Shown here: piece by piece, positions 10,816 to 41,101 of the stretch
Layout of the letters: each line of letters starts with the position of its first letter
Position numbering within the stretch: position 1 is the stretch's first letter
Source: an uncultured Actinomycetota bacterium
GTDB taxonomy: Bacteria > Actinomycetota > UBA4738 > HRBIN12
Assembly: GCA_963788925.1 (NCBI GenBank)
Contig: CAWBIH010000004.1
Span: 5,679-69,678, forward strand
Direction: 5' to 3'
DNA: 64,000 bases
Notes under the pieces: generated by a model
Database searches by the model: none
Told to the model about the DNA's origin: nothing
Seen by the model: the letters and a program-made list of their open reading frames with translations, nothing else
Translations under genes and position numbers: made by a program

Positions 10816-10863
10816 CGTTCGCCTGGTTGAGAGCCGCCGGGGGTCGCGACCGCCGCTGGTAGC

Positions 10864-11388: not shown

Positions 11389-11392
11389 ACTC

Positions 11393-13214: not shown

Positions 13215-13226
13215 GGCGACGCACGA

Positions 13227-16893: not shown

Positions 16894-17390
16894 AGTCCGC
16901 GGAGCTGGCCGGGCGTATCCGGGACCACTTCCCCGACGCGCTGGACGCACGCGACGAGGTCACGGTGTTCATCGGCAGAGACGAGCTGGTCGACGCGTTG
17001 GTCCGACTTCGCGACCAGCCGGATCTCTCGTTCGGCTTCCTCTCGAGCGTGACCGCGACCGATCACCCCGGGAAGGATCCGCGGTTCTGGGTCGTCTACG
17101 AGCTCCGATCCGTGGCCCATGCGCATCGCCTCCGTGTCAAGGTGGGGCTGCCCGGCGACGATCCGCACGTGCCGTCGGTCACCGGGCTCTTCCCAACGGC
17201 CGATTGGCACGAGCGGGAGACGTGGGACCTGTTCGGGGTCGTCTTCGACGACCATCCGGATCTCGACCGGATCCTGCTCCCCGACGACTGGGAGGGCCAT
17301 CCCCTCCGCAAGGACGAGGAGCTCGGGGGCGTCGGCACGCAGTACCACGGCGCGTTCATCCCACCCGTCGACGAACGGACGATGCCCTGA
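16890..17390 (+). CDS. nuoC: NADH-quinone oxidoreductase subunit C
   Basis: ATG 16890 (ATGA overlap with nuoB). Contains [24 protein letters not shown]. Confidence 0.9.
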
Positions 17391-17402
17391 TGGGTCGGAG
17401 AG

Positions 17403-22922: not shown

Positions 22923-24044
22923 TGGACTGGCTCGACTGGCTCCTGCTCGTCGCTCGGGTCGTGATCGTGTTCTTCGCGCTGCTGATCTCCGTGTTGGTCT
23001 ACATCTGGTTCGAGCGCAAGATCATCGCGGACATGCAGACGCGCATGGGTCCCATGCGCGCCGGCCCGCGCGGCATCCTCATCACCCTCGCGGACGGGAT
23101 CAAGCTCTTCTTCAAGGAGGGGATCCTCCCGACGAACGCCGACCGGCCCGTCTATCTCATCGCCCCGGTCCTCGCGATGTTCCCGGGGTTCCTCGCGTTC
23201 TGCACGATCCCGTTCGGCACGAGCATCACGCTGTTCGGTCGGGAGCTCCCCTTCCAGCTCGTGGACCTCGACATCGGGATCCTGTGGGTCCTCGCGATGA
23301 CCTCGATCGCGGTGTACGGCGTGGTCCTCGCGGGCTGGTCGAGCGGCTCGAACTATCCGTTGCTCGGGCGCCGTCCGCTCCTCGGCCCAGATGATCTCCT
23401 ACGAGGTCGCGATGGGGCTCTCGCTGGTCGCGGTGCTGATGTACAGCGGCCATCTGTCCTTCTCGGAGATCGTCTCGGCGCAGGATCGCGTGTGGAACGT
23501 GGTCCCGATGTTCCCGGCCTTCCTGCTGTACATGATCTGCGCGATCGCCGAGACCAACCGCCCGCCGTTCGATCTGGCCGAGGCCGAGTCGGAGCTGGTG
23601 GCGGGCTTCCATACCGAGTACTCCGGCATCACGTTCGCGATGTTCTTCCTCGGCGAGTACGTGGCGACCGTGACCGTCGCGGCGATCGGCGTGACGCTGT
23701 TCCTCGGCGGCTGGCGAGGGCCGGGCCCGGACTTCCTCCCGTGGCTCTGGCCGTTCCTGTGGTTCATCCTCAAGGTGACGCTGGTCATCTACGTGTTCGT
23801 CCTCGTCCGCGCCACGCTGCCACGGGTTCGCTACGACCGGCTGATGGCCTTCGGGTGGAAGGTCCTGATCCCCTTCGGTCTCGTGTGGATCCTGATCACG
23901 GGTGCGGTCGTCGTCCTCCCCGATCGGCTCGATCTCAACCGGGGGACGTTGCTGACGTGGGCGGCGATCGCGTTGGTCGCGATGCTGCTGCTCTCGTTCC
24001 TGCCCACGGGTCGGAGCACCCGTCGTGAGGAGATGACTCGATGA
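22922..24044 (+). CDS. nuoH: NADH-quinone oxidoreductase subunit H; single extra base about 23366-23370 splits it into ORFs 22922-24028 and 23391-24044
   Basis: The N-terminal part ends ...[12 protein letters not shown]. Removing one nt restores [20 protein letters not shown]...[26 protein letters not shown]. Confidence 0.9.
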
Positions 24045-24541
24045 CAGACGAACGCCCGCGCGAGCGGACCTTCCTGGGAGACACCGGCGCCGTCCTGAAG
24101 GGTATGGCGACGGTCTTCAAGCAGACGTTCCGCCCCGACAACACCGAGGAGTACCCGAAGGTCGTCGCCCCGATCCCCGAGCGGGCGCACACCGGTCGCC
24201 ACCTACTGAACCGGCACGAGAACGGCCTGGAGAAGTGCATCGGCTGCGAGCTCTGCGCGTTCGCCTGTCCGGCGGACGCGATCTGGGTGGAGGGCGAGGA
24301 CAACGATCCCGAGAACCCGACGTCGCCGGGGGAGCGGTACGCGAAGGACTACCAGATCAACTACCTGCGCTGCATCATGTGCGGCCTCTGCGTCGAGGCC
24401 TGCCCGACGCGTGCGCTCACGCTCACCAACTACTTCGAGATGTCCTACACCTCGCGCGAGGACGCGATCCTCACGAAGGAGCAGCTGCTGGAGCCGCCTC
24501 CGGAGCTCGGCACCACTCCGGGGGCGAAGGAGGGCCTGTAA
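24041..24541 (+). CDS. nuoI: NADH-quinone oxidoreductase subunit I
   Basis: Contains [12 protein letters not shown] and [12 protein letters not shown]. Confidence 0.95.
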
Positions 24542-24543
24542 GG

Positions 24544-25098
<555 letters not shown>

Positions 25099-25120
25099 AT
25101 CCGATGCGAGAGATGGGGAC

Positions 25121-25426
25121 GTGAGGACCCCGATCGCCTACTTCGTGGTGCTGTCGGGCGTGCTGTTCACGCTCGGCACGCTCGGCGTGCTCTTGCGGAA
25201 GAACGCGCTCCTGATCTTCATGTCGGTCGAGCTGCAGTTGAACGCGGTGAACCTCGCACTGGTCGCGTTCTCGAGGATGCATATGGCGCTGGACGGCCAG
25301 GTGCTGGCGTTCTTCTCGATGGTCGTCGCGGCCGCCGAGGTGGTCGTGGGCCTCGCGATCATCGTGGCGGTGTACCGGCGCCGGGGAACCGTGGACGTCG
25401 ATCAAGCACGAGGACTCGCCGGCTGA
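25121..25426 (+). CDS. nuoK: NADH-quinone oxidoreductase subunit K
   Basis: ORF 25121-25426. Contains [13 protein letters not shown] and [11 protein letters not shown]. Confidence 0.95.
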
Positions 25427-27330
25427 TGGACGACACGAGCGTCGGGATCTCGGGCGTGGCATGGCTCTGGCTCGTCCCCGCGATCCCTCTCGTGGCCGCA
25501 TCCCTCAACCTCTTCGTCGGCCGACGTCTCGGGAAGCTCGCGGGGTTGGTGGCGAGTGGGGCTGTGGGGCTCTCGTTCGTGATATCGCTCGTCGCCGTCC
25601 GCGAGCTCCTGCGCGCGTCTGCCGAAGAACGAGTCGTCACCCAGCATCTGTTCGACTGGATCCAGGTGGGCGCCTTCGAGATCGGCGCCAACCTGCGGCT
25701 CGATGCGGTCTCGGCGACGATGATCCTCGTCATCACCGGGGTCGGCCTCCTGATCCACGTCTACGCGATCGGCTACATGGAGGGCGATCCTCGCTATGGA
25801 CGGTTCTTCGCGTACCTGAACCTGTTCGTCTTCTTCATGCTCCTGCTCGTCCTCGCGGACAACTACGGCCTCCTGTATGTCGGCTGGGAGGGCGTCGGAC
25901 TCTGCTCGTACCTGCTGATCGGGTTCTGGTTCGAGAAGGCCGAGAACGCGAGCGCCGCGAAGAAGGCGTTCATCACCACGCGGATCGGCGACACCGCGAT
26001 GCTCATCGGCCTTGCGCTGATCGTGTCGAAGTTCGGGTCGCTCGACTTCGGTACGGTGCTCGGCGCGCCGGGGGAGACGATCGCGAAGGGCACCGCCACC
26101 GCGATCGCGCTCCTCCTGTTCGCGGGAGCGATCGGGAAGTCCGCGCAGGTGCCGCTCCACGTCTGGCTGCCCGACGCGATGGCAGGCCCCACGCCCGTCT
26201 CCGCGCTGATCCACGCGGCCACGATGGTGACGGCCGGCGTCTACCTCGTCGTTCGGAGCGCACCGCTCTTCGAGCTCTCAGGGGTCGCTCTGACCGTGGT
26301 CCTGGTCGTCGGCCTCGTCACGGCGCTGTTCGCCGCGACCTGCGCGTTGGCACAAGACGACATCAAGCGGGTCCTCGCGTACTCCACGATCAGCCAGCTC
26401 GGGTTCATGTTCATGGCGGCCGGCATGCGCTTCTACACGGGCGCGATGTTCATGCTCGTGGCCCACGCCTTCTACAAGGCCCTGATGTTCCTGGGCGCGG
26501 GGTCCGTGATGCACGGCATGCACGAGGAGACCGACCTGCAACGCATGGGCGGTCTCATCCGCCGGATGCCGATCACGGGATGGACGTTCGTGATCGGCGC
26601 TCTTGCGCTCGCCGGGATCTGGCCACTCGCGGGCTTCTTCGCGAAGGACCAGATCCTCGAGATCGCGAACCACACCGGACGCACGTGGATCTATCTGCTC
26701 GGGACGCTCGGAGCCTTGCTCTCCGCGCTCTACATCGGCCGGCTCCTGTTCCTGGCGTTCTTCGGGGAGCCGAGGAGCGAGGAGGCGGAGCACGCCCACG
26801 AATCGCCGCCCGTGATGACCGTGCCGCTCGTGGCGCTGGCGGCCGGGGCCGCGGTGACCGGCCTCATCCTCGCGACCAACGCGGAGGGCACGCTCGCGAG
26901 GTTCCTCGAGCCCGTGACCGGACCGGTCCCCGAGGGCGAGGGTCTCTCGACCCTCGCCCTCTCGGTCATCGCGACCGCGATCGCGCTCGGCGCGCTCGCG
27001 GTCGCCTGGTGGGTCTACGCCTCGGGCCGTGTCGATCGGCTCACCTTCCGCGAACGGCTGCAGCCGCTGCCGCGAGCGGCCGCGGCGGGCTGGTATGTCG
27101 ATCGTGCCTATTCCACGCTGTTCGTGAACCCGGGGATCGCCGCCGCCCGCTTCTCCGCGGACGTCTTCGACGCGAAGGGCGTCGACGGGCTCGTGAACGG
27201 GGTGGGGGGCGGCGTCCGGCGGCTCGCCGCCGCCGGACGCCGCATCCAGACCGGGTTCGTCCGCTCGTACGCGCTCGGGTTGTTCGTGGGCGCTGTTGGT
27301 GTCCTGCTGTGGCTGGGGACCCGGCTGTGA
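25426..27330 (+). CDS. nuoL: NADH-quinone oxidoreductase subunit L
   Basis: ORF 25426-27330. Contains WEGVGLCSYLLIGFW and [32 protein letters not shown]. Confidence 0.95.
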   Translation: MDDTSVGISGVAWLWLVPAIPLVAASLNLFVGRRLGKLAGLVASGAVGLSFVISLVAVRELLRASAEERVVTQHLFDWIQVGAFEIGANLRLDAVSATMILVITGVGLLIHVYAIGYMEGDPRYGRFFAYLNLFVFFMLLLVLADNYGLLYVGWEGVGLCSYLLIGFWFEKAENASAAKKAFITTRIGDTAMLIGLALIVSKFGSLDFGTVLGAPGETIAKGTATAIALLLFAGAIGKSAQVPLHVWLPDAMAGPTPVSALIHAATMVTAGVYLVVRSAPLFELSGVALTVVLVVGLVTALFAATCALAQDDIKRVLAYSTISQLGFMFMAAGMRFYTGAMFMLVAHAFYKALMFLGAGSVMHGMHEETDLQRMGGLIRRMPITGWTFVIGALALAGIWPLAGFFAKDQILEIANHTGRTWIYLLGTLGALLSALYIGRLLFLAFFGEPRSEEAEHAHESPPVMTVPLVALAAGAAVTGLILATNAEGTLARFLEPVTGPVPEGEGLSTLALSVIATAIALGALAVAWWVYASGRVDRLTFRERLQPLPRAAAAGWYVDRAYSTLFVNPGIAAARFSADVFDAKGVDGLVNGVGGGVRRLAAAGRRIQTGFVRSYALGLFVGAVGVLLWLGTRL

Positions 27331-28874
27331 ACAAGCTCCTCACGCTCACGACGTTCATCCCGCTCCTGGGCGCGTTGATGGTCCTGGCAGGCGGTCGCGG
27401 CCTGAAGGACGAGGCGGCGCGCTGGGTCGCGCTCGGGGCCTCGGTCGCGACGTTCATCGTGTCCCTCGTCGTCCTGGGCCGCTTCGATCCCGCCTCCTCG
27501 GAACCGTTCCAGATGATCGAGATCGCTCGCTGGGTGCCCTCGATCGGCCTGTCCTACGCCGTCGGCATCGACGGCCTCAGCATCTGGATGCTCCTGCTCA
27601 CGACCTTCCTGTTCCCCGTGTCGATCCTCGCGTCTTGGACGATCACGAAGGACGTCCGCCGCTATCTCGCCGCGATCCTCGTGCTCGAGACGGCGGTGAT
27701 CGGCACGTTCGTCGCCCTCGACCTGTTGCTCTTCTTCCTCTTCTTCGAGGCGCTCCTCGTGCCGATGTATCTGTTGATCGGCGGGTGGGGAGGCCAGCGC
27801 CGCATCTACGCCGCGATCAAGTTCTTCCTGTTCACGATGGCGGGCTCGGCGTTCCTCCTCGTCGCCATCCTGTTCCTGTACGCCCAACAGGACGGCCCCA
27901 GGCTGTTCGGATACGGCGCGATGATGGACGCGGCCGCGGGTGTGCCGGTCACGACGGCCCGGTGGTTGTTCCTCGCGTTCTTCGTCGCGTTCGCGGTGAA
28001 GGTGCCGTTGGTCCCGCTGCACACCTGGCTGCCGGACGCGCACACCGAGGCGCCGACGGCCGGCTCGGTCCTCCTGGCCGCGCTCCTGTTGAAGGTCGGG
28101 ACGTACGGGCTGATCCGGTTCAATCTGATGCTCTTCCCGGAGGCGTCGAAGTACTTCGCGACGTTCGTCGGCGTGATCGCCGTGATCGGGATCATCTACG
28201 GAGCGGTGAACGCGCTGATCCAGACCGACATCAAGCGGCTGGTCGCGTACTCGTCCGTCTCGCACCTCGGCTTCGTCGTGTTGGGCGTGTTCGCGTTCAC
28301 CCAGCAGGGGGTCACCGGAGGCGTGCTGCAGATGGTGAACCACGGTCTCGCGACCGGCGGGCTGTTCCTCCTCGTCGGGATGGTCTACGAGCGGACGCAC
28401 ACGCGCGACCTGGACCAGATGGGCGGGCTCGCATCGGGGATGCCGTGGCTGATGGGCGCGTTCTTGTTCACGGCATTCGCCTCCGCAGGCTTGCCCGGGC
28501 TGAACGGGTTCGTCGGCGAGTTCCTCGTGATCGTCGGGACGTTCGCCGTCAGCAACTGGTTCGGGGCGCTCGCCGCGACCGCCGTGGTGCTCGCCGCGAT
28601 CTACCTCCTCTGGTCGTACCAGCGGATGGCGTTCGGGCCTGTCCGCGAGGAGCACCGGCTGCTGCCCGACGTGAACCTTCGCGAGGTCGTGGTCCTCGCG
28701 CCCGTTCTGGCGCTCCTCCTCCTGTTCGGTGTGGCGCCGAAACTGCTCACCGACAGGATCGACCCGGCATCCGAAGCCGTGATCGCGCGCGTCGCGCCAG
28801 ACCCGCAGCACACGACCGACGTCGGTTCGCCCGTGAAGAACTCGATCATCGCCGTTCCGGGAGGCCTGCCGTGA
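27327..28874 (+). CDS. nuoM: NADH-quinone oxidoreductase subunit M
   Basis: GTG 27327. Contains FFEALLVPMYLLIGGWG and VPLHTWLPDAHTEAPTAGS. Confidence 0.95.
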   Translation: MNKLLTLTTFIPLLGALMVLAGGRGLKDEAARWVALGASVATFIVSLVVLGRFDPASSEPFQMIEIARWVPSIGLSYAVGIDGLSIWMLLLTTFLFPVSILASWTITKDVRRYLAAILVLETAVIGTFVALDLLLFFLFFEALLVPMYLLIGGWGGQRRIYAAIKFFLFTMAGSAFLLVAILFLYAQQDGPRLFGYGAMMDAAAGVPVTTARWLFLAFFVAFAVKVPLVPLHTWLPDAHTEAPTAGSVLLAALLLKVGTYGLIRFNLMLFPEASKYFATFVGVIAVIGIIYGAVNALIQTDIKRLVAYSSVSHLGFVVLGVFAFTQQGVTGGVLQMVNHGLATGGLFLLVGMVYERTHTRDLDQMGGLASGMPWLMGAFLFTAFASAGLPGLNGFVGEFLVIVGTFAVSNWFGALAATAVVLAAIYLLWSYQRMAFGPVREEHRLLPDVNLREVVVLAPVLALLLLFGVAPKLLTDRIDPASEAVIARVAPDPQHTTDVGSPVKNSIIAVPGGLP

Positions 28875-30349
28875 TCGGGCAAGAGGTCCTCCCGACCCCC
28901 GCGCTCGTGTTCGAGCCGGTCCTGCCGGAGCTCGTCCTCGTGGCGTTCGCGATCGCCGGGCTGCTCTACGAGGCCCTCGCCAAGCGAGCGGAACCGCTGG
29001 TCCACCTGTCGATAGGCCTGATCGGCGTGGCCCTCGCCGCGGCGACCAGCCTCTCGCTGTGGAGTTGGGACGGGGCCGCGACCGTGCTGGGAGGGACGGT
29101 CGCGGCCGATCGCTTCGCCGTCCTCGCGCGGCTCCTCCTCCTGGCGATCGCCGCGCTCGGCCTGCTCCTCGGCTACGAGTACTTCGCGCGGTCCGGCGAC
29201 GAACAGAAGGGCGAGTTCACGCCGCTGCTCCTGTTCGCCACCTCGGGGATGACGCTGATCGTGGCGGCAGCGGACCTCATCGTGACGTTCCTCGCGCTCG
29301 AGATCCTCTCGCTCTCGCTCTACGTCCTCACCGGCCTCACCGGCCGCCGCGCGGCGAACGAGGCCTCGATGAAGTACTTCTTGCTCGGCGCCTTCAGCTC
29401 CGCGTTCTTCCTCTACGGCGTCGCGATGGCCTACGGCGCGACCGGCACGACGAAGATCGGAGCGATGGCGCTCGCCTTGACCGGGAACGACGGAACGCAG
29501 TCGCTCGCCCTTCTCGGCTTCGCGCTCCTCGCGGTCGGTTTCGGGTTCAAGGTCTCCGCCGCGCCGTTCCACATGTGGACGCCGGACGTCTATCAGGGGG
29601 CACCGACTCCGGTGACCGCCTACATGTCGGCCGCGACGAAGGTCGCGGCGTTCGCTGCCTTGATCCGGGTGTTGGACGTCGCGTTCCAGGCGCTCGCGTG
29701 GGACTGGGCGCCGGTCGTGTGGGGCCTCGCTGCGGTCTCGATCGTCCTGGGGAGCATCCTCGCGATCGCCCAGACGAACGTGAAGCGCATGCTGGCGTAC
29801 TCGAGCATCGCCCACGCCGGCTTCATCCTCACGGGACTGACGGCTCCCGGGGCGGTCGGGATCCGCTCGGCGGTCTTCTACCTGGTCGCGTACGCGGCGA
29901 TGACCGTCGGCGCCTTCGGGACCGTGATGCTGGTGTCCGGCAGGGGAGAGGAGCGGACCCGGATCTCCGACTACGCGGGCCTCGCGCGGACCGACCCGGT
30001 CGCCGCGGCCTTGATGACCCTGTTCCTGTTGTCCCTCGCGGGCATCCCCCCGACCGCCGGGTTCATCGCGAAGGTGAACGTCTTCTCGGCGGCGATCGGC
30101 GCCGGGTATTGGGCGCTCGTGCTGGTGGGCGTGCTCATGAGTGTCGCGGCCGCGTTCTTCTACCTCCGCGTGATCGTCGTGATGTACATGCAGGAGCCCG
30201 AAGAGGCTCCGGCCTCGGACACCATCGAGCTCGCCGGCGGCGCCGCAGGAGCCGTCCTCATCGTGCCGGCCGCCGCGACCCTGGTCCTGGGCCTGTTCCC
30301 CGGTGTGATCGTCGGCGTCATCGAGAAGGCCTCGGTGCTGCGATGGTGA
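28871..30349 (+). CDS. nuoN: NADH-quinone oxidoreductase subunit N
   Basis: GTG 28871. Contains LEILSLSLYVL and APFHMWTPDVYQGAPTPVTAY. Confidence 0.95.
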   Translation: MIGQEVLPTPALVFEPVLPELVLVAFAIAGLLYEALAKRAEPLVHLSIGLIGVALAAATSLSLWSWDGAATVLGGTVAADRFAVLARLLLLAIAALGLLLGYEYFARSGDEQKGEFTPLLLFATSGMTLIVAAADLIVTFLALEILSLSLYVLTGLTGRRAANEASMKYFLLGAFSSAFFLYGVAMAYGATGTTKIGAMALALTGNDGTQSLALLGFALLAVGFGFKVSAAPFHMWTPDVYQGAPTPVTAYMSAATKVAAFAALIRVLDVAFQALAWDWAPVVWGLAAVSIVLGSILAIAQTNVKRMLAYSSIAHAGFILTGLTAPGAVGIRSAVFYLVAYAAMTVGAFGTVMLVSGRGEERTRISDYAGLARTDPVAAALMTLFLLSLAGIPPTAGFIAKVNVFSAAIGAGYWALVLVGVLMSVAAAFFYLRVIVVMYMQEPEEAPASDTIELAGGAAGAVLIVPAAATLVLGLFPGVIVGVIEKASVLRW

Positions 30350-30386: not shown

Positions 30387-31394
30387 GTGAGCCGCCGTGT
30401 CATCCCCGGCCTCGAGTCTCCCGACCCCGTCCTGGAGTCGGAGATCCGGACGCGGCTGGATCGTGTCGAGGAGGCGCTCCGCAAAGCGCTCGAAGAGGCG
30501 AACTCCGAGCTTCTTTCCGCCACCGCCAACTACCTGCTCGCGGCCGGCGGCAAGCGGTTCCGCCCGATGCTGGCGCTCCTGTCCGGCTACTTCGGCGACC
30601 CGACCGACCCTCGCTTGATCCCCGCGTCGGTGTCGCTCGAGCTCGTCCACGTGGCGACCCTGTACCACGACGACGTGATCGACGAGGCGGAGTCGCGTCA
30701 CGGCGTGCCCGCCGCGAACGTCCGATGGGACAACACGGTGGCGATCCTCACCGGGGACTATCTGTTCGCCCGCGCATCGGAGGTCGGCGCCGACCTCGGT
30801 CCCGATGTCTGCCGCATCCTCGCGCAGACGATCGCCGTGCTCTGCGACGGCCAGATCCGGGAGGTGGACGCCTCTCGGCGGCTCGACCAGACCGAGGACA
30901 ACTACATCGAGGTGATCCGCCGCAAGACCGGCGCACTGATCGCCACGTCATGCCGGCTGGGGGCGATGATGGCCGACGCCCCCGCCGAGCACGTCGACAT
31001 CCTCGATGACTTCGGCGAATCGCTCGGTCTCGCCTTCCAGCTCTCGGACGACATCATGGACCTCACCTCGAGCCAGCTCGAGCTGGGCAAGGAGCCGGGT
31101 GTCGACCTGAAGGAGGGCGTGTACACGCTGCCCGTCCTTCATGCGCTCGAGACCTCCCCGCATCGCGACGAGCTGGCCCGGATCCTGTCCACGGGCGTGC
31201 ACGGCGAGCTCCTCGACCGCGCGCTCGAGATCGTCGCGGACGGCGACTCGATCGAGCACGCTCGGAAGGCCGTCCGCGACGAGGTCGGGCGCGCGGTCAC
31301 CCTCGTCGAACGGCTCCCGAGGGGCCCTGCCCAGCACGCATTGGTGCAGCTCGCACGGTTCCTTTCGGCGCGCTGTGGAGCGGATGGAGTCTGA
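30387..31394 (+). CDS. long-chain polyprenyl diphosphate synthase (grcC1/hepT-like, quinone side chain)
   Basis: ORF 30387-31394. Contains LYHDDVIDEAESRHG and FQLSDDIMD. Confidence 0.85.
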   Translation: MSRRVIPGLESPDPVLESEIRTRLDRVEEALRKALEEANSELLSATANYLLAAGGKRFRPMLALLSGYFGDPTDPRLIPASVSLELVHVATLYHDDVIDEAESRHGVPAANVRWDNTVAILTGDYLFARASEVGADLGPDVCRILAQTIAVLCDGQIREVDASRRLDQTEDNYIEVIRRKTGALIATSCRLGAMMADAPAEHVDILDDFGESLGLAFQLSDDIMDLTSSQLELGKEPGVDLKEGVYTLPVLHALETSPHRDELARILSTGVHGELLDRALEIVADGDSIEHARKAVRDEVGRAVTLVERLPRGPAQHALVQLARFLSARCGADGV

Positions 31395-31415
31395 TGGAGG
31401 GCGCCCGAAGGGATC

Positions 31416-31817
31416 ATGCTAGGATCCGCGCTCGGGAAGACTTTCACAAGCGTGCCTGACTACTACTCGTCCTACGGTGTCGTGCTGGCGGTCGTGGCCG
31501 CCGGAGCTATCCTCGTCGCGGTGGCGTTCACCGCCGCCCGCCTGATCGCTCCCCACCGACCCAGCCCGGCCAAGCTCACGACCTATGAATGCGGGATCGA
31601 TCCGGTCGGCGAGGGCTGGTCGCAGAGCCAGATCCGCTATTACGTCTTCGGCTTCCTCTTCGTGATCTTCGACGTCGAGGCCGTGTTCCTCTTCCCGTGG
31701 GCGCGCGTCTTCGAGAGCCTCGGCTGGGCCGCGGTGGTCGAGATGGGCATCTTCATCGGGATCCTCGCCACCGGGCTGCTCTACGCCTGGCGCAAGGGGG
31801 TCGTCCGATGGGCCTGA
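31416..31817 (+). CDS. nuoA: NADH-quinone oxidoreductase subunit A, second copy (nuoA2); true start may be GTG 31452
   Basis: ORF 31416-31817. Contains YECGIDP and [12 protein letters not shown]. Confidence 0.9.
31420..31450 (+). promoter_or_regulatory. extended -10 element (TGcTAGGAT) followed by the Rex-operator-like palindrome CTCGGGAAGACTTTCACAAG
   Basis: The operator lies at 31431-31450 and its right arm TTCACAA is exact. The TGCTAGGNT-plus-operator layout is the same as at 14577-14603. An in-frame GTG at 31452 follows directly. Confidence 0.5.
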
Positions 31818-32314
31818 TCACCGAGAAGACCCCGCTCCCCAAGATCCAGCCGGTGAAGTTCCTGCTCAACTGGGGCCGCCGGTACTCCCTGTGGGTCATG
31901 AACTTCGGCCTCGCGTGCTGCGCGATCGAGTTGATCGCGACCTCGACCTCCAAGCACGACTTCATCCGCCTGGGCGTCATCCCGTTCGCCCACGGCCCGC
32001 GCCAGGCGGATCTCCTCGTCGTGGCAGGGACCCTGACCGACAAGATGGCGCCCGCTCTCAAGCGCGTCTACGACCAGATCCCCGACCCGAAGTACGTGAT
32101 CTCGTTCGGGTCCTGCTCCAACTGCGGCGGCCCCTACTGGGACTCCTACTCCGTGACCAAGGGCGTCGACCAGATCGTGCCCGTCGACGTCTACGTGCCC
32201 GGTTGCCCGCCCCGCCCGGAGGCCCTGCTGCACGGCATCGTGAAGCTGCAGGAGAAGATCAAGGACGAGGACATCCAGGAGAAGTGGGCGAGTGGCCACA
32301 GCGCTAGCTCCTGA
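31808..32314 (+). CDS. nuoB: NADH-quinone oxidoreductase subunit B, second copy (nuoB2)
   Basis: ATG 31808. Contains [18 protein letters not shown] and PGCPPRP. Confidence 0.9.
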
Positions 32315-32813
32315 GGACGTCGAGTCGCGCCTGCGGGCGCGGTTCGGCGATGACATCCTCGCCTTCGAGGTGCAGCACGGCCATCCGGTGGCGACCGTCA
32401 GCACGGAGCGCTACCGCGACGTCTGCCGGTTCCTGCGGGACGAGCCCGAGTTCGACTGCGTCTATTGCGACTTCACGGCCGGCGTCGACTTCGGCCCGGA
32501 GCGGGGGTTCGAGGTCGTCACGCACCTGTACTCGCTCACCCACCGTCACAACGTGCGCCTCAAGGTGCAGCTGACGCACGAGGATCCGACCTGCCCGACG
32601 GTGTCGGACCTGTTCCCGACGTCGGACTGGCACGAGCGTGAGACGCGAGAGATGTTCGGGATCCGCTTCGAGGGGCATCCGAAGCCGGTGAAGCTCCTGC
32701 TCTCCGAGCCGTTCGAGGGACAGCCGCTGCGCAAGGACTTCCCGTTGATGAGTCGCGAGGCGAAGCCGTGGCCGGGCCTCGTCGAAGGGGAGCCCGAGGA
32801 GGACGAGGAGTGA
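32292..32813 (+). CDS. nuoC: NADH-quinone oxidoreductase subunit C, second copy (nuoC2, 173 aa, not fused to D)
   Basis: ORF 32292-32813. Contains [23 protein letters not shown]. Confidence 0.85.
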
Positions 32814-33819
32814 TCCTCGCCGAGACGGGCGTCTCGATCGCCGAGGACGTGTTCTCGAACTTCTGGCTCGTCCTGTTGCTGAAGACGATCGCCGTGATGG
32901 GGTTCTTCCTCGTGGTTCCGCTCGGGGTCGGCTACATCGAGCACAAGGGCCTCGCCCACATGCAGGCGCGGCTCGGACCGATGGAGGCGGGCCGGTTCCA
33001 CGGATGGGCCCAGCTCGTGGCCGACGGGGTCAAGTTCATCCAGAAGGAGGACATCGTTCCCGGCCGCCGCCGACCGCAACGTGTTCTCGCTCGCGCCCGC
33101 GGTAGCGATGATCCCGTACATCGCGATCCTGGTGGTCCTGCCGCTCGGGGAACACGGTGTTCGCGGAGAACCTCGACGTCGGCATCTTCTTCGTGCTGGC
33201 GATGTCCAGCGTCTCCGTGATCGGGATCATGATGGCCGGCTGGTCCTCGGCGAACAAGTTCTCGCTGATCGGCGCGCTCCGTGCGGCCGCGCAGCTGATC
33301 GCCTACGAACTCCCGCTCGTGATCGCCGCGGCCGCGGTCGTGATGCAGGCCGGGACGCTCTCGATGGTGGGCATCGCCGAGGCGCAGCAGAACCTCTGGT
33401 TCATCATCCCGCAGCTGCCGGGGTTCCTGATCTTCATGATGGCGGCGTTCGCCGAGCTGCAGCGGCCGCCCTTCGACATGCCCATCGCCGACTCCGAGAT
33501 CATCTTCGGCGCCTACACCGAGTACACGGGCCTGAAGTTCGCCTTCTTCCTGCTCGCCGAGTACGGCGGGATCGTGGCGTTCTCCGGGATCGCCGCGGTC
33601 CTCTACCTGGGCGGGTACCAGCCGTTGCCCGGCATCCCGATCCCGGGCGTGCTGATGATGATGGGCAAGATCGGCGCGCTGGCCTTCTTGTTCATCTGGC
33701 TGCGGGCGACCTACCCGCGCCTGCGTGAGGACCAACTCCAGCGCTTCTCCTGGCTGGTGCTCATCCCCCTGTCCCTGGCCCTCATCATGGGCGTGGCCGT
33801 GGCGAAGGTGGCGTTCTAG
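32810..33819 (+). CDS. nuoH: NADH-quinone oxidoreductase subunit H, second copy (nuoH2); two frame breaks (about 33062-33066 and about 33147-33156)
   Basis: GTG 32810 (GTGA overlap with nuoC2). The product is pieced from three frames: ...HMQARLGPMEAGRFHGWAQLVADGVKFIQKEDIVPG / AADRNVFSLAPAVAMIPYIAILVVLPLG / TVFAENLDVGIFFVLAMSS...ELQRPPFDMPIADSEIIFGAYTEYTG. Confidence 0.85.
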
Positions 33820-34323
33820 GTGGCCGAGCAGAAGCGGAAGCGGGGGACCGGTCTCGGGCTCGCGAAGGGCCTCTCGGTGACGCTGAAGACGATGCTCCAG
33901 CCGGCCGTCACGCAGCAGTACCCGCGGGTGAAGCCCGATCTCCCCGCGCGGACGCGCGGGGTGATCGCGCTCAAGGAGGCCAACTGCACCGTCTGCTACA
34001 AGTGCTCGCGCGAGTGCCCGGACTGGTGCATCTACATCGATGCCCACAAGGAGACGCACGACCCGGCGAGCGGCGGTCGCGCTCGCTCCCAGAAGGTCCT
34101 CGACCGGTTCGCGATCGACTACGCCCTCTGCATGTACTGCGGGATCTGCGTCGAGGTCTGCCCCTTCGATGCGTTGTTCTGGAGCCCGGAGTTCGAATAC
34201 GGCGAGTACGACATCGACCTGATGACCCATGAGAAGGAGCGGCTCGAAGACTGGACCTACACCGTCCTGCCGCCCCCCGCTCTGGAAGAGGGTGCGGAGC
34301 CCGCGGAGGAACAGGCTTCGTGA
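33820..34323 (+). CDS. nuoI: NADH-quinone oxidoreductase subunit I, second copy (nuoI2)
   Basis: Contains [12 protein letters not shown] and [12 protein letters not shown]. Confidence 0.9.
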
Positions 34324-34820
34324 CGGCCCAGGAATACGCGTTCGCCGTGATCGCCGCGGTGGGCTCGATCAGTGCGATCGCCGTCGTGACGGCGCGGAAC
34401 GTGGTGCATGCGGCTCTCTACCTCGTGGTCGCGCTCCTGTCGGTCGGCGCGACGTTCCTGCTCCTCGGGGCGGAGTTCGCCGGCTGGGTGCAGATCTTGA
34501 TCTACGTCGGCGCCATCGTGATCCTGTTCCTCTTCGGACTGATGCTCACGAAGGCCCCGATCGGCAGGGACACCCTCGACAACAACCGCCGGTGGCTCGG
34601 AGCGCTCGTCGCCATCGGTGTCTTCGCGGGTCTCGTCTTCCTGATCCAGGAGGCGTTCCCGTTCGACTCCGAGCAGTTCGAGGTCTTCCGATCGACCACC
34701 CAGGGCGTGGGGGAATCGATGTTCCGTGACTACGTGCTCCCGTTCGAGGCGATCTCGTTCCTGCTGCTCGCAGCCTTGATCGGTGCCATCGTGCTCGCCC
34801 GCAAGGACGAGGGGAACTGA
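34320..34820 (+). CDS. nuoJ: NADH-quinone oxidoreductase subunit J, second copy (nuoJ2)
   Basis: Contains [23 protein letters not shown] and [16 protein letters not shown]. Confidence 0.9.
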
Positions 34821-34821
34821 C

Positions 34822-35124
34822 GTGATCCGGCTTCCCTTCGTGCTCGTGTTCTCGACGCTGCTCTTCTCGACGGGCGTCTACGGGGTCCTCGCCCGCAGGA
34901 ACGCCGTCATGGTCCTGATGTCGATCGAGCTCATGCTGAACGCGGTGAACGTGAACTTCATCGCGTTCTCGTCGTCGTTGCACGACGTGGGAGGCCAGAT
35001 CTTCGCCCTGTTCATCATCGCCGTCGCGGCAGCCGAGGTGGGGATCGGGCTCGCGATCGTGATCCTGCTGTTCCGGAACCGGGCGTCGATCAACGTGGAC
35101 GAGGTGAACCTCCTCAAGTGGTAG
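34822..35124 (+). CDS. nuoK: NADH-quinone oxidoreductase subunit K, second copy (nuoK2)
   Basis: GTG 34822. Contains [14 protein letters not shown] and [11 protein letters not shown]. Confidence 0.9.
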
Positions 35125-37088
35125 CGGCCGAGGTAACGACGACCGCTTCCGGCGCCATCCAGTACGCGTGGGTGATCGCGCTGCTCCCGTTCGTCGCGGC
35201 GGCCCTGACGCTGTTCTTCGGGAAGCGCACGCCGGGACAGGGCGCGGTGTACGGGATCACCGCCCTCGCCGTCGGCTTCGTGATGGCGCTCGCCGTGCTC
35301 TGGCACTTCGTGACGGGGGGAGGAGCCTACGCACCGGAGGGCATCGAGTGGTTCACGATCGGGCCACTGCATCTCGAGGTGGGCCAGTTCGTCGACGGCC
35401 TCACCGCGGTGATGCTCGTCGTCGTCACCGCGGTGTCGCTCGCGGTCCACGTCTACTCCCTCGGCTACATGCACGGGGACGTCCGGTTCACCTGGTTCTA
35501 CGTCGTGTTGTCCCTCTTCACCGGCGCGATGCTCACGGTGGTGGTCGCCAACAACCTGCTGATGCTGCTGGTCGGCTGGGAGATCATGGGCGTCTGCTCG
35601 TACCTGCTGATCGGCCACTGGTACGAGGAGCACGAGAACTCGAGCGCGGCGATCAAGGCGTTCATCACCACGCGCGTCGGCGACGTGCCGTTCATGTTCG
35701 GGATCTTCGCGCTGATCTTCGCCACCGGTTTCACGACCACGAACATCGCCGAGATCGGCGAGACGATCGCGAAGCCGGGAGTCTCGTCCGCCCTCGTCAC
35801 GGCGGCTGCCCTGCTCCTGTTCGGAGGGGCGATCGGGAAGTCCGCTCAGTTCCCCCTCCACGTGTGGCTTCCGGACGCGATGGCGGGGCCGACTCCGGTC
35901 TCGGCGCTGATCCATGCCGCCACGATGGTGGCCGCTGGGGTCTATCTGGTCGGGCGGATGTTCGAGGTCTTCGTGCACGCCGACCCGTTCGTCCTGACGA
36001 TCGTGAGCGTGATCGCCGCGATCACGACGCTAGGCGCCGCGTTCCTCGCGCTCGTGCAGGACGACATCAAGCGGGTCCTCGCGTACTCGACGCTCTCGCA
36101 GCTCGCGTACATGGTGGCCGGCCTGTCGCTCGGGCCGGAGGGCGTTTCCGCCGGTTTCTTCCATCTGTTCACGCACGCGTTCTTCAAGGCTCTGCTCTTC
36201 CTCGGCGCCGGCTCGGTGATCCATGCGGTCCATTCGAACAACATGAGCGACATGGGTGGCCTCAAGGACGAGATGCCCGTCACGTTCTGGACGTTCCTCA
36301 TCGGCTCCGCGGCGCTCGCCGGCGTGTTCCCGCTCGCCGGTTTCTGGTCGAAGGACGAGCTCCTCGTGGGGGCCTGGGAGCACAACCAGTGGCTGTTCTT
36401 CGTCCTGCTCGCGGTTGCGGTGATGACGGCGTTCTACATGACCCGGTGCGTCCTGCTGACGTTCTTCGGCACCTATCGGGGCACCGCGCACCCGCACGAA
36501 TCGCCGCCCGTGATGACCGGCCCACTCGTGGGGCTCGCGGGCGCGTCGGTCGTCGCGGGCTTCCTGGGCGCTCCACAGCTCGGGGCCGTCTTCGGGGACT
36601 GGGTGTTCTTCGAGCATCCGCACGAGGCGAGCTTCGTCTTCTGGGTGGCCCTCGTCGGCACGATCGCGGCCGCCGCGGGGATCCTGATCGGCTACCCGCT
36701 GTACCGGGAACGCCGCGAGCGGGATCCGCTCATGGCGTTCCCCCATGCCTGGAACCTGCTGCAGCACCGCTACTACATCGACGACTTCTACATGAAGGGC
36801 ATCGTCTATCCGATCCGCGATCAGGTCTCCGCCGCCGTGTACTGGACGAACCAGCACGTCCTGGACGGAGCGGTGAACGGCGCCGCGTGGGTGACGCGCG
36901 GGCTGGCGACGTTCATCAGTTGGATCGATCGCACCTTCGTCGACGGCCTCGTGAACGCCGTCGGCGGCCTGACCGGTGCGACGGGGGGCCTGCTCAAGTA
37001 TCTGCAGACCGGCAACGTGCAGTGGTATGCGGTCGTACTGTTCGTCGGCGTCGTGGCGTTGACCATCGTGTTCGTCCAGATCGCGTGA
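35118..37088 (+). CDS. nuoL: NADH-quinone oxidoreductase subunit L, second copy (nuoL2)
   Basis: Contains [15 protein letters not shown] and [32 protein letters not shown]. Confidence 0.95.
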
Positions 37089-37098
37089 GGAGTGTGAG

Positions 37099-38640
37099 AT
37101 GACCTGGGAGAGCTCGGCGATCACGATCACCACCCTGCTACCGATCCTCGGCGCACTGGTGATCCTCCTCGTGCCGAAGGACCGCGAACGGATGGTGCGC
37201 GGCCTCGGCATCCTGTTCACCGGCGCGGCACTGGTGCTGTCGGTCGCGATCGCGATCGGTTTCGACTATGGGACCGACGGGCTCCAGTACGAGCTCGACG
37301 TGAACTGGATCTCCGCGATCGGGGCCCGGTACCACGTGGGCATCGACGGGATCTCGATGGCGCTGTACGTGCTGACCTTCCTGCTCTCGTTCCTGTGCGC
37401 CGTCTACACGTGGCGCTTCGTTCCGGAGCCGGGCCGCACCAAGGCGTTCCTGGCGTTGATGTTGCTGCTCGAGACCGGGATGGCCGGCACGTTCATCGCC
37501 TTCGACCTGATCTTGTTCTTCGTCTTCTGGGAGATGGTGCTGGTCCCGATGTACTTCCTGATCGGGATCTGGGGGTCGGCGAACCGCGAGTACGCCGCGA
37601 TCAAGTTCTTCCTCTACACGCTGTTCGGCTCCGTGTTCATGCTGTTGGGGTTCCTGGCCCTCTACTTCAACGGACCGGACCCGCAGACGTTCGACCTGGT
37701 GAAGCTCACCGAGTTCGGGGCGAGCGGCGGGTACGCCCACACCTTCCAGCTGATCGTGTTCGGGGCGATCGCCCTCGGGTTCGCGATCAAGGTCCCGATG
37801 TGGCCGTTCCACACGTGGTTGCCCGACGCGCACACGGAGGCGCCCACGATCGGATCCGTGCTGCTTGCGGGGATCATGCTGAAGATGGGCACGTACGGCT
37901 TCATCAGGATCGCGCTGCCCGTGCTTCCCGAAGGCGCGCAGGCGTACGCGCCATGGATCGGGGTCCTCGCGGCCATCGCGATCGTCTACGCCGCGCTGGC
38001 GTGTCTCGCGCAACGGGACTTGAAACGGCTGATCGCGTTCTCCTCCGTCGGACACATGGGCTTCGTGATGCTCGGCATCGCCACGCTCACCGAGATCGGG
38101 ATCCAGGCGGCCCTGTTCGGCATGGTCGCCCACGGCCTGATCACCGGCATGCTCTTCTTCTGCGTCGGCTCGATCTACGACCGGTACCACACGAGGCAGA
38201 TATCGGAGATCGGCGGTGGGATGGCCCAGCGGATGCCGAAGCTGGCGGGCGTGTTCGCGTTCGTGGCCATCGCCTCCCTCGGGCTGCCGGGGCTGGCCGG
38301 ATTCTGGGGCGAGGTGATGGCCCTCCTCTCGTCGTTCCGGCCGAACGAGGTGCTCCTCGGTGAGCACGTCGGACTGTTCCGGGGCCTCATGGTGGCCGGC
38401 GGGATCGGGACGATCCTCACGGCCGGCTATTTCCTGTGGATGCTGCAGCGCGTGAACATGGGCACGATGCCCGAACGCTGGAACGAACACGCGCTGAGCG
38501 ACATGAACACCATCGAATGGGCGTCGTGGACGCCGCTGCTGGTGTTGATCCTCGCGCTCGGCCTGTTCCCGCGCCTGATCTTCGGCATCAGTCAGGAGGC
38601 CGTGAGCGGCATCATGGCCGTCCTGGGGCAGGGAGGCTGA
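37099..38640 (+). CDS. nuoM: NADH-quinone oxidoreductase subunit M, second copy (nuoM2)
   Basis: Contains FWEMVLVPMYFLIGIWG and WPFHTWLPDAHTEAPTIGS. Confidence 0.95.
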   Translation: MTWESSAITITTLLPILGALVILLVPKDRERMVRGLGILFTGAALVLSVAIAIGFDYGTDGLQYELDVNWISAIGARYHVGIDGISMALYVLTFLLSFLCAVYTWRFVPEPGRTKAFLALMLLLETGMAGTFIAFDLILFFVFWEMVLVPMYFLIGIWGSANREYAAIKFFLYTLFGSVFMLLGFLALYFNGPDPQTFDLVKLTEFGASGGYAHTFQLIVFGAIALGFAIKVPMWPFHTWLPDAHTEAPTIGSVLLAGIMLKMGTYGFIRIALPVLPEGAQAYAPWIGVLAAIAIVYAALACLAQRDLKRLIAFSSVGHMGFVMLGIATLTEIGIQAALFGMVAHGLITGMLFFCVGSIYDRYHTRQISEIGGGMAQRMPKLAGVFAFVAIASLGLPGLAGFWGEVMALLSSFRPNEVLLGEHVGLFRGLMVAGGIGTILTAGYFLWMLQRVNMGTMPERWNEHALSDMNTIEWASWTPLLVLILALGLFPRLIFGISQEAVSGIMAVLGQGG

Positions 38641-38647
38641 CCTCTTC

Positions 38648-40108
38648 GTGAGCGTTGACTACCACGCGATCCTGCCCGAGCTGATCCTCGCGGGGACGAT
38701 CATGCTCGTCCTGGTCGTCGACCTGTTCCTGCCGGCCCGCCTCAAGTGGGGTTCGATGCCGATCGGACTGCTCGGCGTCCTGGGGTCGCTCGTCGCCGTG
38801 CTCACGCTGCTGGGGGACGAACGCGCCACCTTCGGTGGTGCGTTCGTCGTCGACAACTTCGCCGTGTTGTTCAAGGTCTTCTTCCTCGCGGCGGCGGTGA
38901 TCGTCCTCGCGGTCTCGCGTCGGTACTTCGACCAGCCCGGCTACTACCAGGGCGAGTACTACTTCCTCCTCCTCACGTCGTTCCTCGGCTGCCTGTTGAT
39001 GCCGTCCTCGCGCGACCTCTTGATGCTGTTCATCTCGCTCGAGCTCGTCTCGGCGCCGGGGTTCCTGATGGCGGCGTTCCGCAAGTGGGACGTGACCGGG
39101 GTCGAGGGCGGCCTGAAGTTCTTCCTGATCGGCGTGCTGTCGACGGCCGTGATGCTGTTCGGGATGAGCTTGATCTACGGACTCACCGGGGGAGAGACGA
39201 GGCTCGACGCGATCGCCTCCGCCCTCGCCACGCTCGATCCCTCCCAGGAGGCGATGGCGCTCGCGTCGATCTTGTTCATCGTGGTCGGCTTCGCCTTCAA
39301 GGTCTCCGCGTTCCCCTTCCAGTTCTGGGCACCCGACACGTACGAGGGCGCGCCGGTCCCGGTCGCGGCGTTCCTGGCGGTGGCCTCCAAAGCGGCCGGC
39401 TTCGCAGGGCTGCTGCAGCTGATGTTCGTGGCGTTCATCGGACAGCACGAGTTCTGGGTGCCGATCTTCGCGTTCCTGTCGATCGCCACGATGACGATCG
39501 GGAACCTCGTGGCGCTGCAGCAGCGGCAGTTCGTCCGGCTGCTCGCGTACTCGGGGATCGCCCAGGCGGGGTACATCCTCTTGCCGTTCGCCCTGGTGAC
39601 GAACGACCAAGTCGTGAACCAGCAGGCGTTCGCTGCATCGACCGCCTACATCTTGATCTACGGCATCATGAACCTGGGCGCGTTCGCGGTCGGGGTCGCG
39701 CTCAGCAAGCGGAGCCCGAGGCTCCTGCTCTCCGACTTCGCCGGGGTCGCCCGGATCGCCCCGTTCCTCGCGGTGGGGATGACCCTGTTCTTGGTGTCGC
39801 TGGCGGGCGTGCCTCCGGCCGCCGGGTTCTGGGCCAAGATCTTGATCTTCGGCGCGGCGATCGCCCGCGGCGGCGTCCTCGGCCCGGTGCTCGCCGCGAT
39901 CATGGTCGTGAACTCGGTGGTGAGCGTCTTCTACTACCTCGCCGTCGCCCGTCAGATGATCTTCCAGCCGGCCGAGGACACCACGCCGTTCCGGACTCCG
40001 GTCCTGGTCGCGGGGGTCGTCGGGCTCTCGATGGCGGCGCTCCTGTTCTTCTTCCTCCTGCCCGGGACCTTCTCGAAGCTCGCGGACATCTCGACGCTCG
40101 TCGGCTGA
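38648..40108 (+). CDS. nuoN: NADH-quinone oxidoreductase subunit N, second copy (nuoN2)
   Basis: Contains LELVSAPGFLM and FPFQFWAPDTYEGAPVPVAAF. Confidence 0.95.
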   Translation: MSVDYHAILPELILAGTIMLVLVVDLFLPARLKWGSMPIGLLGVLGSLVAVLTLLGDERATFGGAFVVDNFAVLFKVFFLAAAVIVLAVSRRYFDQPGYYQGEYYFLLLTSFLGCLLMPSSRDLLMLFISLELVSAPGFLMAAFRKWDVTGVEGGLKFFLIGVLSTAVMLFGMSLIYGLTGGETRLDAIASALATLDPSQEAMALASILFIVVGFAFKVSAFPFQFWAPDTYEGAPVPVAAFLAVASKAAGFAGLLQLMFVAFIGQHEFWVPIFAFLSIATMTIGNLVALQQRQFVRLLAYSGIAQAGYILLPFALVTNDQVVNQQAFAASTAYILIYGIMNLGAFAVGVALSKRSPRLLLSDFAGVARIAPFLAVGMTLFLVSLAGVPPAAGFWAKILIFGAAIARGGVLGPVLAAIMVVNSVVSVFYYLAVARQMIFQPAEDTTPFRTPVLVAGVVGLSMAALLFFFLLPGTFSKLADISTLVG

Positions 40109-40210: not shown

Positions 40211-41101
40211 ATGGCACCGGGGATCAACCGGCTGAAGACCTGGGTCCTGATCGCGGCGATGGGCGGCCTGTTCGTCGTCGTCGGGCAGCTGCTCGGCGGC
40301 ACGAACGGAGCGACGATCGCGCTGGTCCTGGCGGTGGTCTTCAACTTCTCGATGTACTGGTTCTCCGACAAGATCGCGATCGCGACCACGCGCTCCAAGC
40401 CCGTGACCGAGCAGGAGATGCCCGACTACTACCGGATCGTGCGGGAGCTCACGAACGAGCAGCGCTTGCCGATGCCCAAGCTGTTCGTCTCCGAGATGCA
40501 GCAGCCGAACGCATTCGCGACGGGGCGGAACCCCGAGCACGCCTCGGTGGCCGTGACCCGGGGGATCCTCCAGATCCTCGACGAGCGTGAGCTCCGCGGC
40601 GTCCTCGCCCACGAGCTGTCGCACGTGGCCAACCGCGACATCCTGATCTCCTCGATCGCCGCCGCGATCGGCATGAGCATCACGTTCCTGGCGCGGTTCG
40701 CGTTCTTCTTCGGGGGCAACGACGAGCGCGGCGGCAGTGGCCTCTCGCTCCTCCTCGCGTGGATCCTCGCGCCGATCGCCGCGATATTGATCCAGATGGC
40801 CGTCACGCGTTCTCGCGAGTACCAGGCCGACGAGTCCGGCGCGTTCCTCTCCAAGGACCCCGACGCCCTGGCGAGCGCACTGCTCAAGCTCGAACAGGCT
40901 TCGAAGCAGGTGCCCCCGCTCGCGACCGTGAGCCCGGCCGAGGCGCACATGTTCATCGTCAACCCGATGAACGCCCTTCAGGCGCGCGGCAGGGGCGGGA
41001 TCTCGAGCCTGTTCAGGACCCACCCGCCGACCGAGGCTCGCGTCGAGCGCCTCCGGGCGATCGCCAGCGAGCTTCGCGGCGAGCGCGGCCCGATCGGCTA
41101 G
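40211..41101 (+). CDS. htpX: zinc metalloprotease HtpX
   Basis: ORF 40211-41101 with an AAGGAGG Shine-Dalgarno. Contains the HELSH zinc motif, TM helices and a typical N-terminus (RLKTWVLIAAMGGLF). Confidence 0.9.
   Translation: MAPGINRLKTWVLIAAMGGLFVVVGQLLGGTNGATIALVLAVVFNFSMYWFSDKIAIATTRSKPVTEQEMPDYYRIVRELTNEQRLPMPKLFVSEMQQPNAFATGRNPEHASVAVTRGILQILDERELRGVLAHELSHVANRDILISSIAAAIGMSITFLARFAFFFGGNDERGGSGLSLLLAWILAPIAAILIQMAVTRSREYQADESGAFLSKDPDALASALLKLEQASKQVPPLATVSPAEAHMFIVNPMNALQARGRGGISSLFRTHPPTEARVERLRAIASELRGERGPIG

Follow-up and report, generated by a model that had tools for sequence, protein, structure and literature searches.

The cyanobacterial and chloroplast NDH-1 enzymes, Campylobacter complex I, and archaeal Fpo are composed of a NuoA, B, C, D, and H-N set without NuoEFG, and such 11-subunit relatives of complex I take electrons from a non-NADH donor that feeds the NuoI and NuoB clusters (PMC3144371, PMC4453560). 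In Streptomyces, an operon termed nuo2 (SCO4599-SCO4608 in S. coelicolor) has the gene order nuoA2-B2-C2-H2-I2-J2-K2-L2-M2-N2 and lacks nuoD, E, F, and G, with htpX as the next gene in most loci. Its function has been called unclear, with cooperation with the canonical operon suggested (PMC9239103), which bears out the view of the initial annotation of our sequence that the function of nuo2 is uncharacterized. A Streptomyces nuoD2 gene has been reported as unlinked from the nuo2 operon (PMC3765725, PMC8388888). We analyzed a 64,000-nucleotide (nt) stretch of contig CAWBIH010000004.1 from an uncultured Actinomycetota bacterium (hereafter the window), which contains a canonical nuo operon (nuo1) and, downstream of it, a second block of complex-I-like genes. 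Judged by sequence and by its relatives, this block is of the known actinobacterial nuo2 kind and is a conserved, most likely functional operon. The NuoD subunit missing from it is probably encoded by an unlinked nuoD2 gene elsewhere in the genome, which would make Nuo2 a split 11-subunit enzyme without an NADH module.

Gene content of the nuo2 operon

The nuo2 operon of the window consists of ten tightly packed genes on the + strand (31416/31452-40108) in the order nuoA2-B2-C2-H2-I2-J2-K2-L2-M2-N2, between a polyprenyl diphosphate synthase gene upstream and htpX downstream. Neighboring genes overlap or are spaced by at most 10 nt. The initial annotation had let the operon begin at 30387, a start that is corrected here since 30387-31394 is the synthase gene. 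The first gene, nuoA2 (31452-31817; PF00507, 5.8e-36), encodes 121 amino acids (aa) from a GTG at 31452, the length at which its relatives are called; a start at the ATG at 31416 instead would give 133 aa. NuoA2 retains its conserved sequence motif, as read from the sequence. The nuoB2 gene (31808-32314; 168 aa; PF01058) encodes the carrier of cluster N2 and scored 223.6 bits on NF005012 against a cutoff of 116; all four N2 cysteines are present (CC...GSC...GCPP). Its product is 98.8% identical to that of the related locus L008, with a ratio of nonsynonymous to synonymous substitution rates (dN/dS) of 0.019. The nuoC2 gene (32292-32813; PF00329, 3.9e-39) encodes a 173-aa 30-kDa subunit (Complex1_30kDa), and homologues of 173 to 176 aa are widespread. 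Its stop codon overlaps the GTG start of nuoH2 (GTGA), so that no space is left for nuoD between both genes. The nuoH2 gene itself (32810-33819; PF00146; 308 bits on NF004741, cutoff 305) lies in three frames and gives a 336-aa NuoH when read through.

The remaining six genes complete the set. The nuoI2 gene (33820-34323; 167 aa; Fer4 families) encodes the 2x[4Fe-4S] ferredoxin-type subunit with both CxxCxxCxxxCP motifs, confirming, together with the NuoB2 cysteines, the cofactor motifs claimed in the initial annotation. It is followed by nuoJ2 (34320-34820; 166 aa; PF00499, 5.4e-41) and nuoK2 (34822-35124; 100 aa; PF00420; 119.8 bits on NF004320, cutoff 57), whose product retains both membrane glutamates (in IELMLNA and in a second motif, read from the sequence). 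The antiporter-like subunits are encoded by nuoL2 (35118-37088; 656 aa; PF00662 and PF00361; 616.7 bits on NF005141, cutoff 556), with a long C-terminal extension, by nuoM2 (37099-38640; 513 aa; PF00361; 567 bits on TIGR01972), with the motifs FWEMVLVPMY, FAIKVPMWPFHTWLPDAH, and GFWGE, and by nuoN2 (38648-40108; 486 aa; PF00361; 363.6 bits on TIGR01770, cutoff 332.6). Conserved Glu and Lys residues of NuoK2, L2, M2, and N2 are present, as judged by eye. Exact look-ups of the NuoC2 and NuoM2 sequences returned no recorded protein.

All ten products matched the expected Nuo subunit in Pfam and NCBIfam, with the NuoB, H, K, L, M, and N models passing their curated cutoffs, which supports the initial description of a ten-gene, nuoD-less cluster. 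Mrp antiporters and the Mbh, Mbx, and Hyf modules share the antiporter-like L/M/N fold family PF00361 with Nuo2, but in NCBIfam the L2, M2, and N2 products are matched best by the NuoL, M, and N models, and the NuoA, J, K, H, B, C, and I subunits are present as well. In the NCBIfam scan of the nuo2 products, Mrp, Hyf, and Fpo models stayed far below their own cutoffs and below the Nuo models, and we saw no Mrp-specific subunits. By these assignments, the cluster is a genuine complex-I-type (Nuo) operon and not an Mrp, Fpo, or Hyf operon. As a side observation, NuoB2 reached 195 bits with mitochondrial PSST/NDUFS7 and a lower 162 bits with the NuoB of Mycobacterium smegmatis, which hints that nuo2 may not simply be an actinobacterial offshoot of nuo1.

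Compared with the canonical 14-subunit enzyme (encoded by nuo1 and found in M. smegmatis and Thermus thermophilus), the Nuo2 subunits are homologous and carry the same cofactor motifs and proton-pumping residues, but the operon has no NuoD, E, F, or G gene, and tblastn gave only 28 to 52% identity to the nuo1 paralogues. With NuoD1, E1, F1, and G1 as tblastn queries, we detected no second copy of nuoD, E, F, or G in the 64-kb window, where the sole copies are those of nuo1; the only nuoD is nuoD1 (17403-18689, + strand), whose product scored 569 bits on NF004739. As had been claimed, an operon of this gene content cannot encode a stand-alone canonical enzyme. Ten of the 11 subunits of an 11-subunit complex-I-like enzyme (A, B, C, D, and H-N) nevertheless sit in this one operon.

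Distribution of nuo2 and candidate sources of its NuoD

With a NuoC2 alignment as the query, we searched GTDB genomes, one for each species, and compared the gene order around the matches, which revealed three groups of loci. In the first group, comprising 14 species represented by metagenome-assembled genomes (MAGs; labelled Actinomycetota, Actinomycetes, or Solirubrobacterales), nuo1 is followed by the synthase gene, by A2B2C2H2...N2, and by htpX; the spacing between nuoC2 and nuoH2 was 24 to 48 nt in 17 measured loci of the window's lineage. The second group (Streptomyces, Nonomuraea, Actinomadura, Spirillospora, Planomonospora, Glycomyces, and Mycobacteriales MAGs) has the same nuoD-less A2B2C2H2...N2 order, mostly with htpX next after nuoN2. 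The third group, in Acidimicrobiia and other Actinomycetota MAGs (Nitriliruptorales-like ones included), possesses an 11-gene operon with nuoD2 in place, A2B2C2-D2-H2...N2, and a subset of it (L029, L024, L089, L092, and L093) has the same nuo1-synthase arrangement upstream and htpX downstream. On this comparison, the nuoD-less nuo2 derives from an 11-gene operon, A2-B2-C2-D2-H2-I2-J2-K2-L2-M2-N2, that is still extant in other Actinomycetota.

Downstream of nuoN2, an htpX gene is found in genera such as Streptomyces and Spirillospora and also in several clusters with nuoD2 in place. Since the nuo2-htpX linkage is shared with Streptomyces, Nonomuraea, Actinomadura, and lineages that retain nuoD2, the arrangement is old, and from this synteny both the linkage and the position of nuo2 after nuo1 are ancestral. 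The proposal that the block was an insertion or duplication into conserved synteny is therefore not upheld, given the low identity to nuo1 and the nuo2-htpX adjacency in many genera; a recent duplication of nuo1 as the origin of nuo2 was ruled out at 28 to 52% identity. The adjacency of grcC1 and htpX in Mycobacterium tuberculosis could equally stem from loss of nuo2 in that species or from its insertion in the lineage of the window. Two other architectures were observed in the scan. Two Actinomycetota MAGs (L021 at 9500-12050 and L043 at 9070-12460) have nuoB2-nuoC2-nuoI2 ahead of htpX as their only nuo2 genes and lack those of the membrane arm, a set that is either a reduced remnant or a soluble submodule. 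In two Nonomuraea loci (L045 at 11438-14522 and L075 at 11462-14243), about 3 kb of other sequence lies between nuoH2 and nuoI2 within nuo2.

The Streptomyces loci match the nuo2 genes of the window better than they match nuo1 (75 to 78% for B2, 65 to 71% for I2, and 58 to 61% for H2). The window differs from Streptomyces in that its nuo2 stands directly after nuo1 and the polyprenyl synthase gene, and its organism belongs to an uncultured lineage of soil Actinomycetota in which one MAG carries the label Solirubrobacterales. NuoC2 is also different, being compact in the window (173 aa) and 577 aa long in the one Streptomyces locus examined (L052, 9857-11590), where the NuoC domain is followed by a tail of about 400 residues rich in Ala, Gly, Ser, Pro, and Glu that ends at the start of nuoH2. 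We had considered a nuoD remnant in the 700- to 1280-nt gap between C2 and H2 of Streptomyces; in L052 this gap is the low-complexity C-terminal tail of NuoC2.

Misassembly could in principle have removed nuoD2 from between nuoC2 and nuoH2, as the initial annotation had allowed, and the window does contain indel errors near this junction. However, a nuoD-less junction of identical architecture occurs in the 17 loci of the lineage from independent short-read and long-read assemblies, Streptomyces and its allies likewise lack nuoD at this position, and metagenome contigs span the C2/H2 junction of the window. We regard the chance of such an artifact as negligible.

The 11-gene clusters recovered in the NuoC2 scan gave us the first NuoD2 sequences. 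A search of representatives with NuoD1 had returned 150 matches, and the three candidates examined were NuoD proteins of ordinary A-B-C-D-H clusters. In-cluster NuoD2 is 36 to 38% identical to NuoD1 (tblastn) and passes the NCBIfam NuoD model. We then scanned a NuoD2 alignment against JGI metagenomes and counted the best 80 loci, of which 24 were in-cluster and 56 were orphans, defined by the lack of further nuo genes in flanks of up to 10 kb. The orphan genes split into clade c6, with 31 loci, and clade c5, with 25, and their products are 54 to 62% identical to in-cluster NuoD2 and 42 to 44% identical to NuoD1. Both in-cluster and orphan NuoD2 proteins lack a segment of about 41 residues of the window's NuoD1. 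Each clade has its own neighborhood: PBP - NfeD - ... - SelB - SelA - nuoD2 - ... - PF02636 methyltransferase - NUDIX - MBL for c6, and DUF2520 - PF02636 methyltransferase - nuoD2 for c5. The c6 members bear the label Actinomycetota. Contigs of 0.95 and 2.65 Mb that carry such members stem from the soil assembly set in which close relatives of the window also occur, there on contigs as long as 1.5 Mb, and the G+C content of c6, 0.67 to 0.73, is close to the 0.66 to 0.70 of the window's lineage. Because two nuoD-less operon lineages (that of the window and that of Streptomyces and its allies) face two orphan nuoD2 clades, and because of the Streptomyces precedent, a split 11-subunit enzyme is the best supported explanation. 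Clade c6 would then belong with the window's lineage and c5 with Streptomyces-type genomes.

Several observations weigh against this explanation. Among the metagenome loci compared, we did not find an orphan nuoD2 and a nuoD-less operon on one contig or in one MAG. The sequencing runs with the orphan locus L117 share no run with those that hold the window, and for the one orphan gene tested, the nuoD2 of L111, the window-holding runs contained only pieces of 90 to 93% identity; contig depths for this gene in those runs were not discriminating, and the variant pattern fully matched no sampled orphan. The pairing of c6 with the window's lineage and of c5 with Streptomyces is one that we infer. 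Finally, where Thermus Nqo4 has its quinone-binding Tyr87, NuoD2 proteins have a Trp (RxDW for RxDY), with His38 retained (alignments A3 and A5; L168, 8001-9188), and this substitution may mean that the acceptor chemistry differs from that of canonical complex I. Of the three options that the initial annotation had raised (borrowing of NuoD1, an unlinked partner, or a different redox module), the unlinked partner fits best with the in-cluster nuoD2 ancestors, the orphan genes, and the Streptomyces reports. This comes near to the outcome that the initial annotation had named as refuting its view, an 11-subunit enzyme that is simply split. The orphan nuoD2 family proved to be common in soil Actinomycetota; a member matching this genome was not found.

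The absence of a detected nuoD2 in this genome would also suit a hybrid isoform, in which Nuo2 would combine with NuoD1, and perhaps NuoEFG, of nuo1 into an NADH:quinone oxidoreductase with a different membrane arm. The nuo1 operon with the sole nuoD of the window lies directly upstream, and this possibility has been raised for Streptomyces (PMC9239103, PMC3765725, PMC8388888). However, Nuo2 duplicates NuoB, C, H, and I, the subunits that contact NuoD, in divergent form, so that NuoD1 would need to fit two partner sets; furthermore, the ancestral operon has its own NuoD2, and orphan NuoD2 genes are abundant and conserved. We consider the hybrid unlikely. A second alternative is that the ten proteins form a different ion-translocating redox device that works without any NuoD-like subunit. 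The cluster lacks nuoD in at least two large lineages, and the reduced B2-C2-I2 sets hint at uses of the parts on their own, but a NuoD-type subunit is listed in every solved homologue that matches NuoB2, NuoC2, or orphan NuoD2 (complex I, NDH-1, Mbh, MBS, and formate hydrogenlyase were compared). NuoC2 is, moreover, under purifying selection, and orphan NuoD2 genes exist, which leaves a NuoD-free device quite improbable. We counted the dN/dS of nuoC2 (0.11) as support for the split 11-subunit enzyme, as the only known role of NuoC is structural and in association with NuoD.

In such a split enzyme, nuoD2 would be a single gene elsewhere in the genome, often beside a gene for an NDUFAF7/MidA-type methyltransferase. 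Its proton-pumping membrane arm would be complete with NuoA2, H2, J2, K2, L2, M2, and N2, and its Q-module would comprise NuoB2 (cluster N2), NuoI2 (clusters N6a and N6b), NuoC2, and the unlinked NuoD2. Lacking NuoEFG, the complex would not oxidize NADH itself; by analogy with other 11-subunit enzymes, electrons would enter at NuoI2 from another carrier and pass to the membrane quinone, assumed here to be menaquinone. We infer the possession of an orphan nuoD2 by this organism and, with it, the composition of the complex, its electron donor, and its acceptor. Relative to NDH-1, Campylobacter complex I, and Fpo, Nuo2 would differ in having NuoD2 split from the operon and in a NuoD2 with Trp at the quinone site and about 41 residues fewer than the NuoD1 of the window; we identified no donor-binding accessory subunit at nuo2.

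NDUFAF7 methylates Arg85 of NDUFS2, the mitochondrial NuoD (PMC3829151). We found a gene for a PF02636 (MidA/NDUFAF7-family) methyltransferase beside or near orphan nuoD2 in 32 of the 56 loci, most of the others having short flanks; examples are L168 (9203-10231, - strand), L167 (12232-13287, - strand), L102 (11180-12856, - strand), and L145 (1978-3063, + strand). In six 11-gene operons of Acidimicrobiia (L035, L054, L076, L080, and L084 at about 19.2-20.6 kb and L074 at 12.5-13.7 kb), the gene right after nuoN2 likewise belongs to PF02636. By a count along an alignment with mouse NDUFS2, in mature-protein numbering, Arg85 would lie in the HRG motif. The Arg aligned with it is kept in NuoD2 (HRG or HRA), and both the NuoD1 of the window and Thermus Nqo4 have HTG. 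These associations make it possible, though we propose it only tentatively, that Nuo2 is a distinct 11-subunit enzyme widespread in Actinomycetota with its own NDUFAF7/MidA-like assembly factor.

Frame breaks, selection, and flanking sequence

The two frame breaks that the initial annotation had noticed in nuoH2 are indeed present in the window. The reading frame shifts from 2 to 0 at about 33053-33062 and from 0 to 1 at about 33146-33151, each time by one extra base, and the two +1 shifts do not compensate for each other. These shifts could indicate that nuo2 is a decaying remnant in the process of being lost in this strain, and the two MAGs that retain only B2-C2-I2-htpX demonstrate that loss occurs in the nuo2 family. 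However, every spanning DNA or RNA contig from relatives lacks the extra bases: contigs of four soil metagenomes with relatives of 95 to 99% identity have one base fewer at about 33055-33062 and at about 33146-33151, contigs from RNA runs likewise lack both bases, and the same was seen in an alignment with four assembled relatives. The NuoH2 of L001 is intact at 335 aa. Furthermore, the canonical nuoH1 gene (22922-24044, + strand) has the same kind of break, with one extra base at 23366; the window reads CTCGGGCGCC at 23360-23372, and relatives lack base 23366, the removal of which restores the frame. Between 15900 and 35800, the only indels that recurred in relatives across runs were base 23366 and the two nuoH2 sites. 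In three long-read soil metagenome contigs with near-identical nuo2 genes (L003, L169, and L170), many gene calls are broken up or fused, at positions that vary, which fits indel errors of the kind seen in the window.

Between the window and L008, the two large parts of nuoH2 have dN/dS values of 0.06 and 0.15, and the remaining nuo2 genes have values of 0.02 to 0.11, which do not exceed those of the nuo1 genes. The nuo2 genes are under strong purifying selection. Because relatives lack the extra bases, nuoH1 contains a similar break, and dN/dS is low, we read the nuoH2 breaks as assembly errors: most likely they are consensus errors, or at most very recent strain-specific lesions. Assembly error is the simpler reading, decay of the operon in this strain is very improbable, and on the sequence comparisons the nuo2 operon as such is not decaying, contrary to the earlier suggestion. 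Metatranscriptome contigs of at least 95% identity covered nuo2 at depths similar to those of nuo1, which suggests that nuo2 is expressed in soil, with contig depth being a poor measure as conserved stretches recruit related taxa.

The leader of nuo2 (31395-31451, + strand) extends from the stop codon of the synthase gene to the GTG start of nuoA2 and contains TGCTAGGAT, a -10-like hexamer of the TANNNT type, as well as a candidate Rex site. Of the -10/Rex-like operator proposed in the initial annotation, the -10-like element is conserved in four of four relatives. The Rex part is weak: the site at 31433-31448 matches TGTGAANNNNTTCACA (Rex-operator-like, with the palindrome TGTGAA-N4-TTCACA) with two mismatches, its right half (TTCACA) is retained in L001 and L002 and lost in L003, and the nine Rex-like matches in the window compare with 6.0 expected in shuffled sequences, 19 of 100 shuffles reaching nine. 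By these counts, a Rex-like operator upstream of nuo2 appears weak and no better than chance. We found no convincing sigma-70 consensus promoter or terminator bounding nuo2. The best Rex-operator-like site of the window, TGTGAAAGGTTTCACG (14586-14601; one mismatch), sits a short distance ahead of the MenJ-like gene upstream of nuo1 rather than ahead of nuo2.

The window has a G+C content of about 67%, and the genes around nuo2 lie on the + strand in the order MenJ-like gene, nuo1, polyprenyl synthase gene, the ten nuo2 genes, and htpX. The MenJ-like geranylgeranyl reductase gene (14635-15882) precedes the canonical 14-gene nuoA-N operon nuo1 (15975-30349, with an approximate start), which we delimited by a tblastn paralogue map. 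The GrcC1-like polyprenyl diphosphate synthase gene (30387-31394; PF00348; best NCBIfam model NF042417, below its cutoff) is not a member of the operon, and its synteny upstream of nuo2 is kept in L001 and in L007-L020. The htpX gene (40211-41101; PF01435) encodes an M48 zinc protease that scored 342 to 345 bits on HtpX NCBIfam models, just under their cutoffs.

Implications for Nuo2 in Actinomycetota

The occurrence of nuo2 in one more lineage is in itself ordinary, as the operon has been annotated for two decades in Streptomyces, for which both the operon and the main hypotheses on it are already in print. What our comparison adds is the 11-gene ancestor, the conserved family of orphan nuoD2 genes, the association with an NDUFAF7-like gene, and the purifying selection and apparent transcription in soil. 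With these, the idea that Nuo2 borrows NuoD1 becomes a set of testable predictions for a respiratory enzyme that is widespread in soil actinobacteria. If Nuo2 is a distinct 11-subunit enzyme with its own assembly factor, its electron donor may be other than NADH and its acceptor site altered, and the pair of nuoD2 and the methyltransferase gene may stay apart from the operon for separate control.

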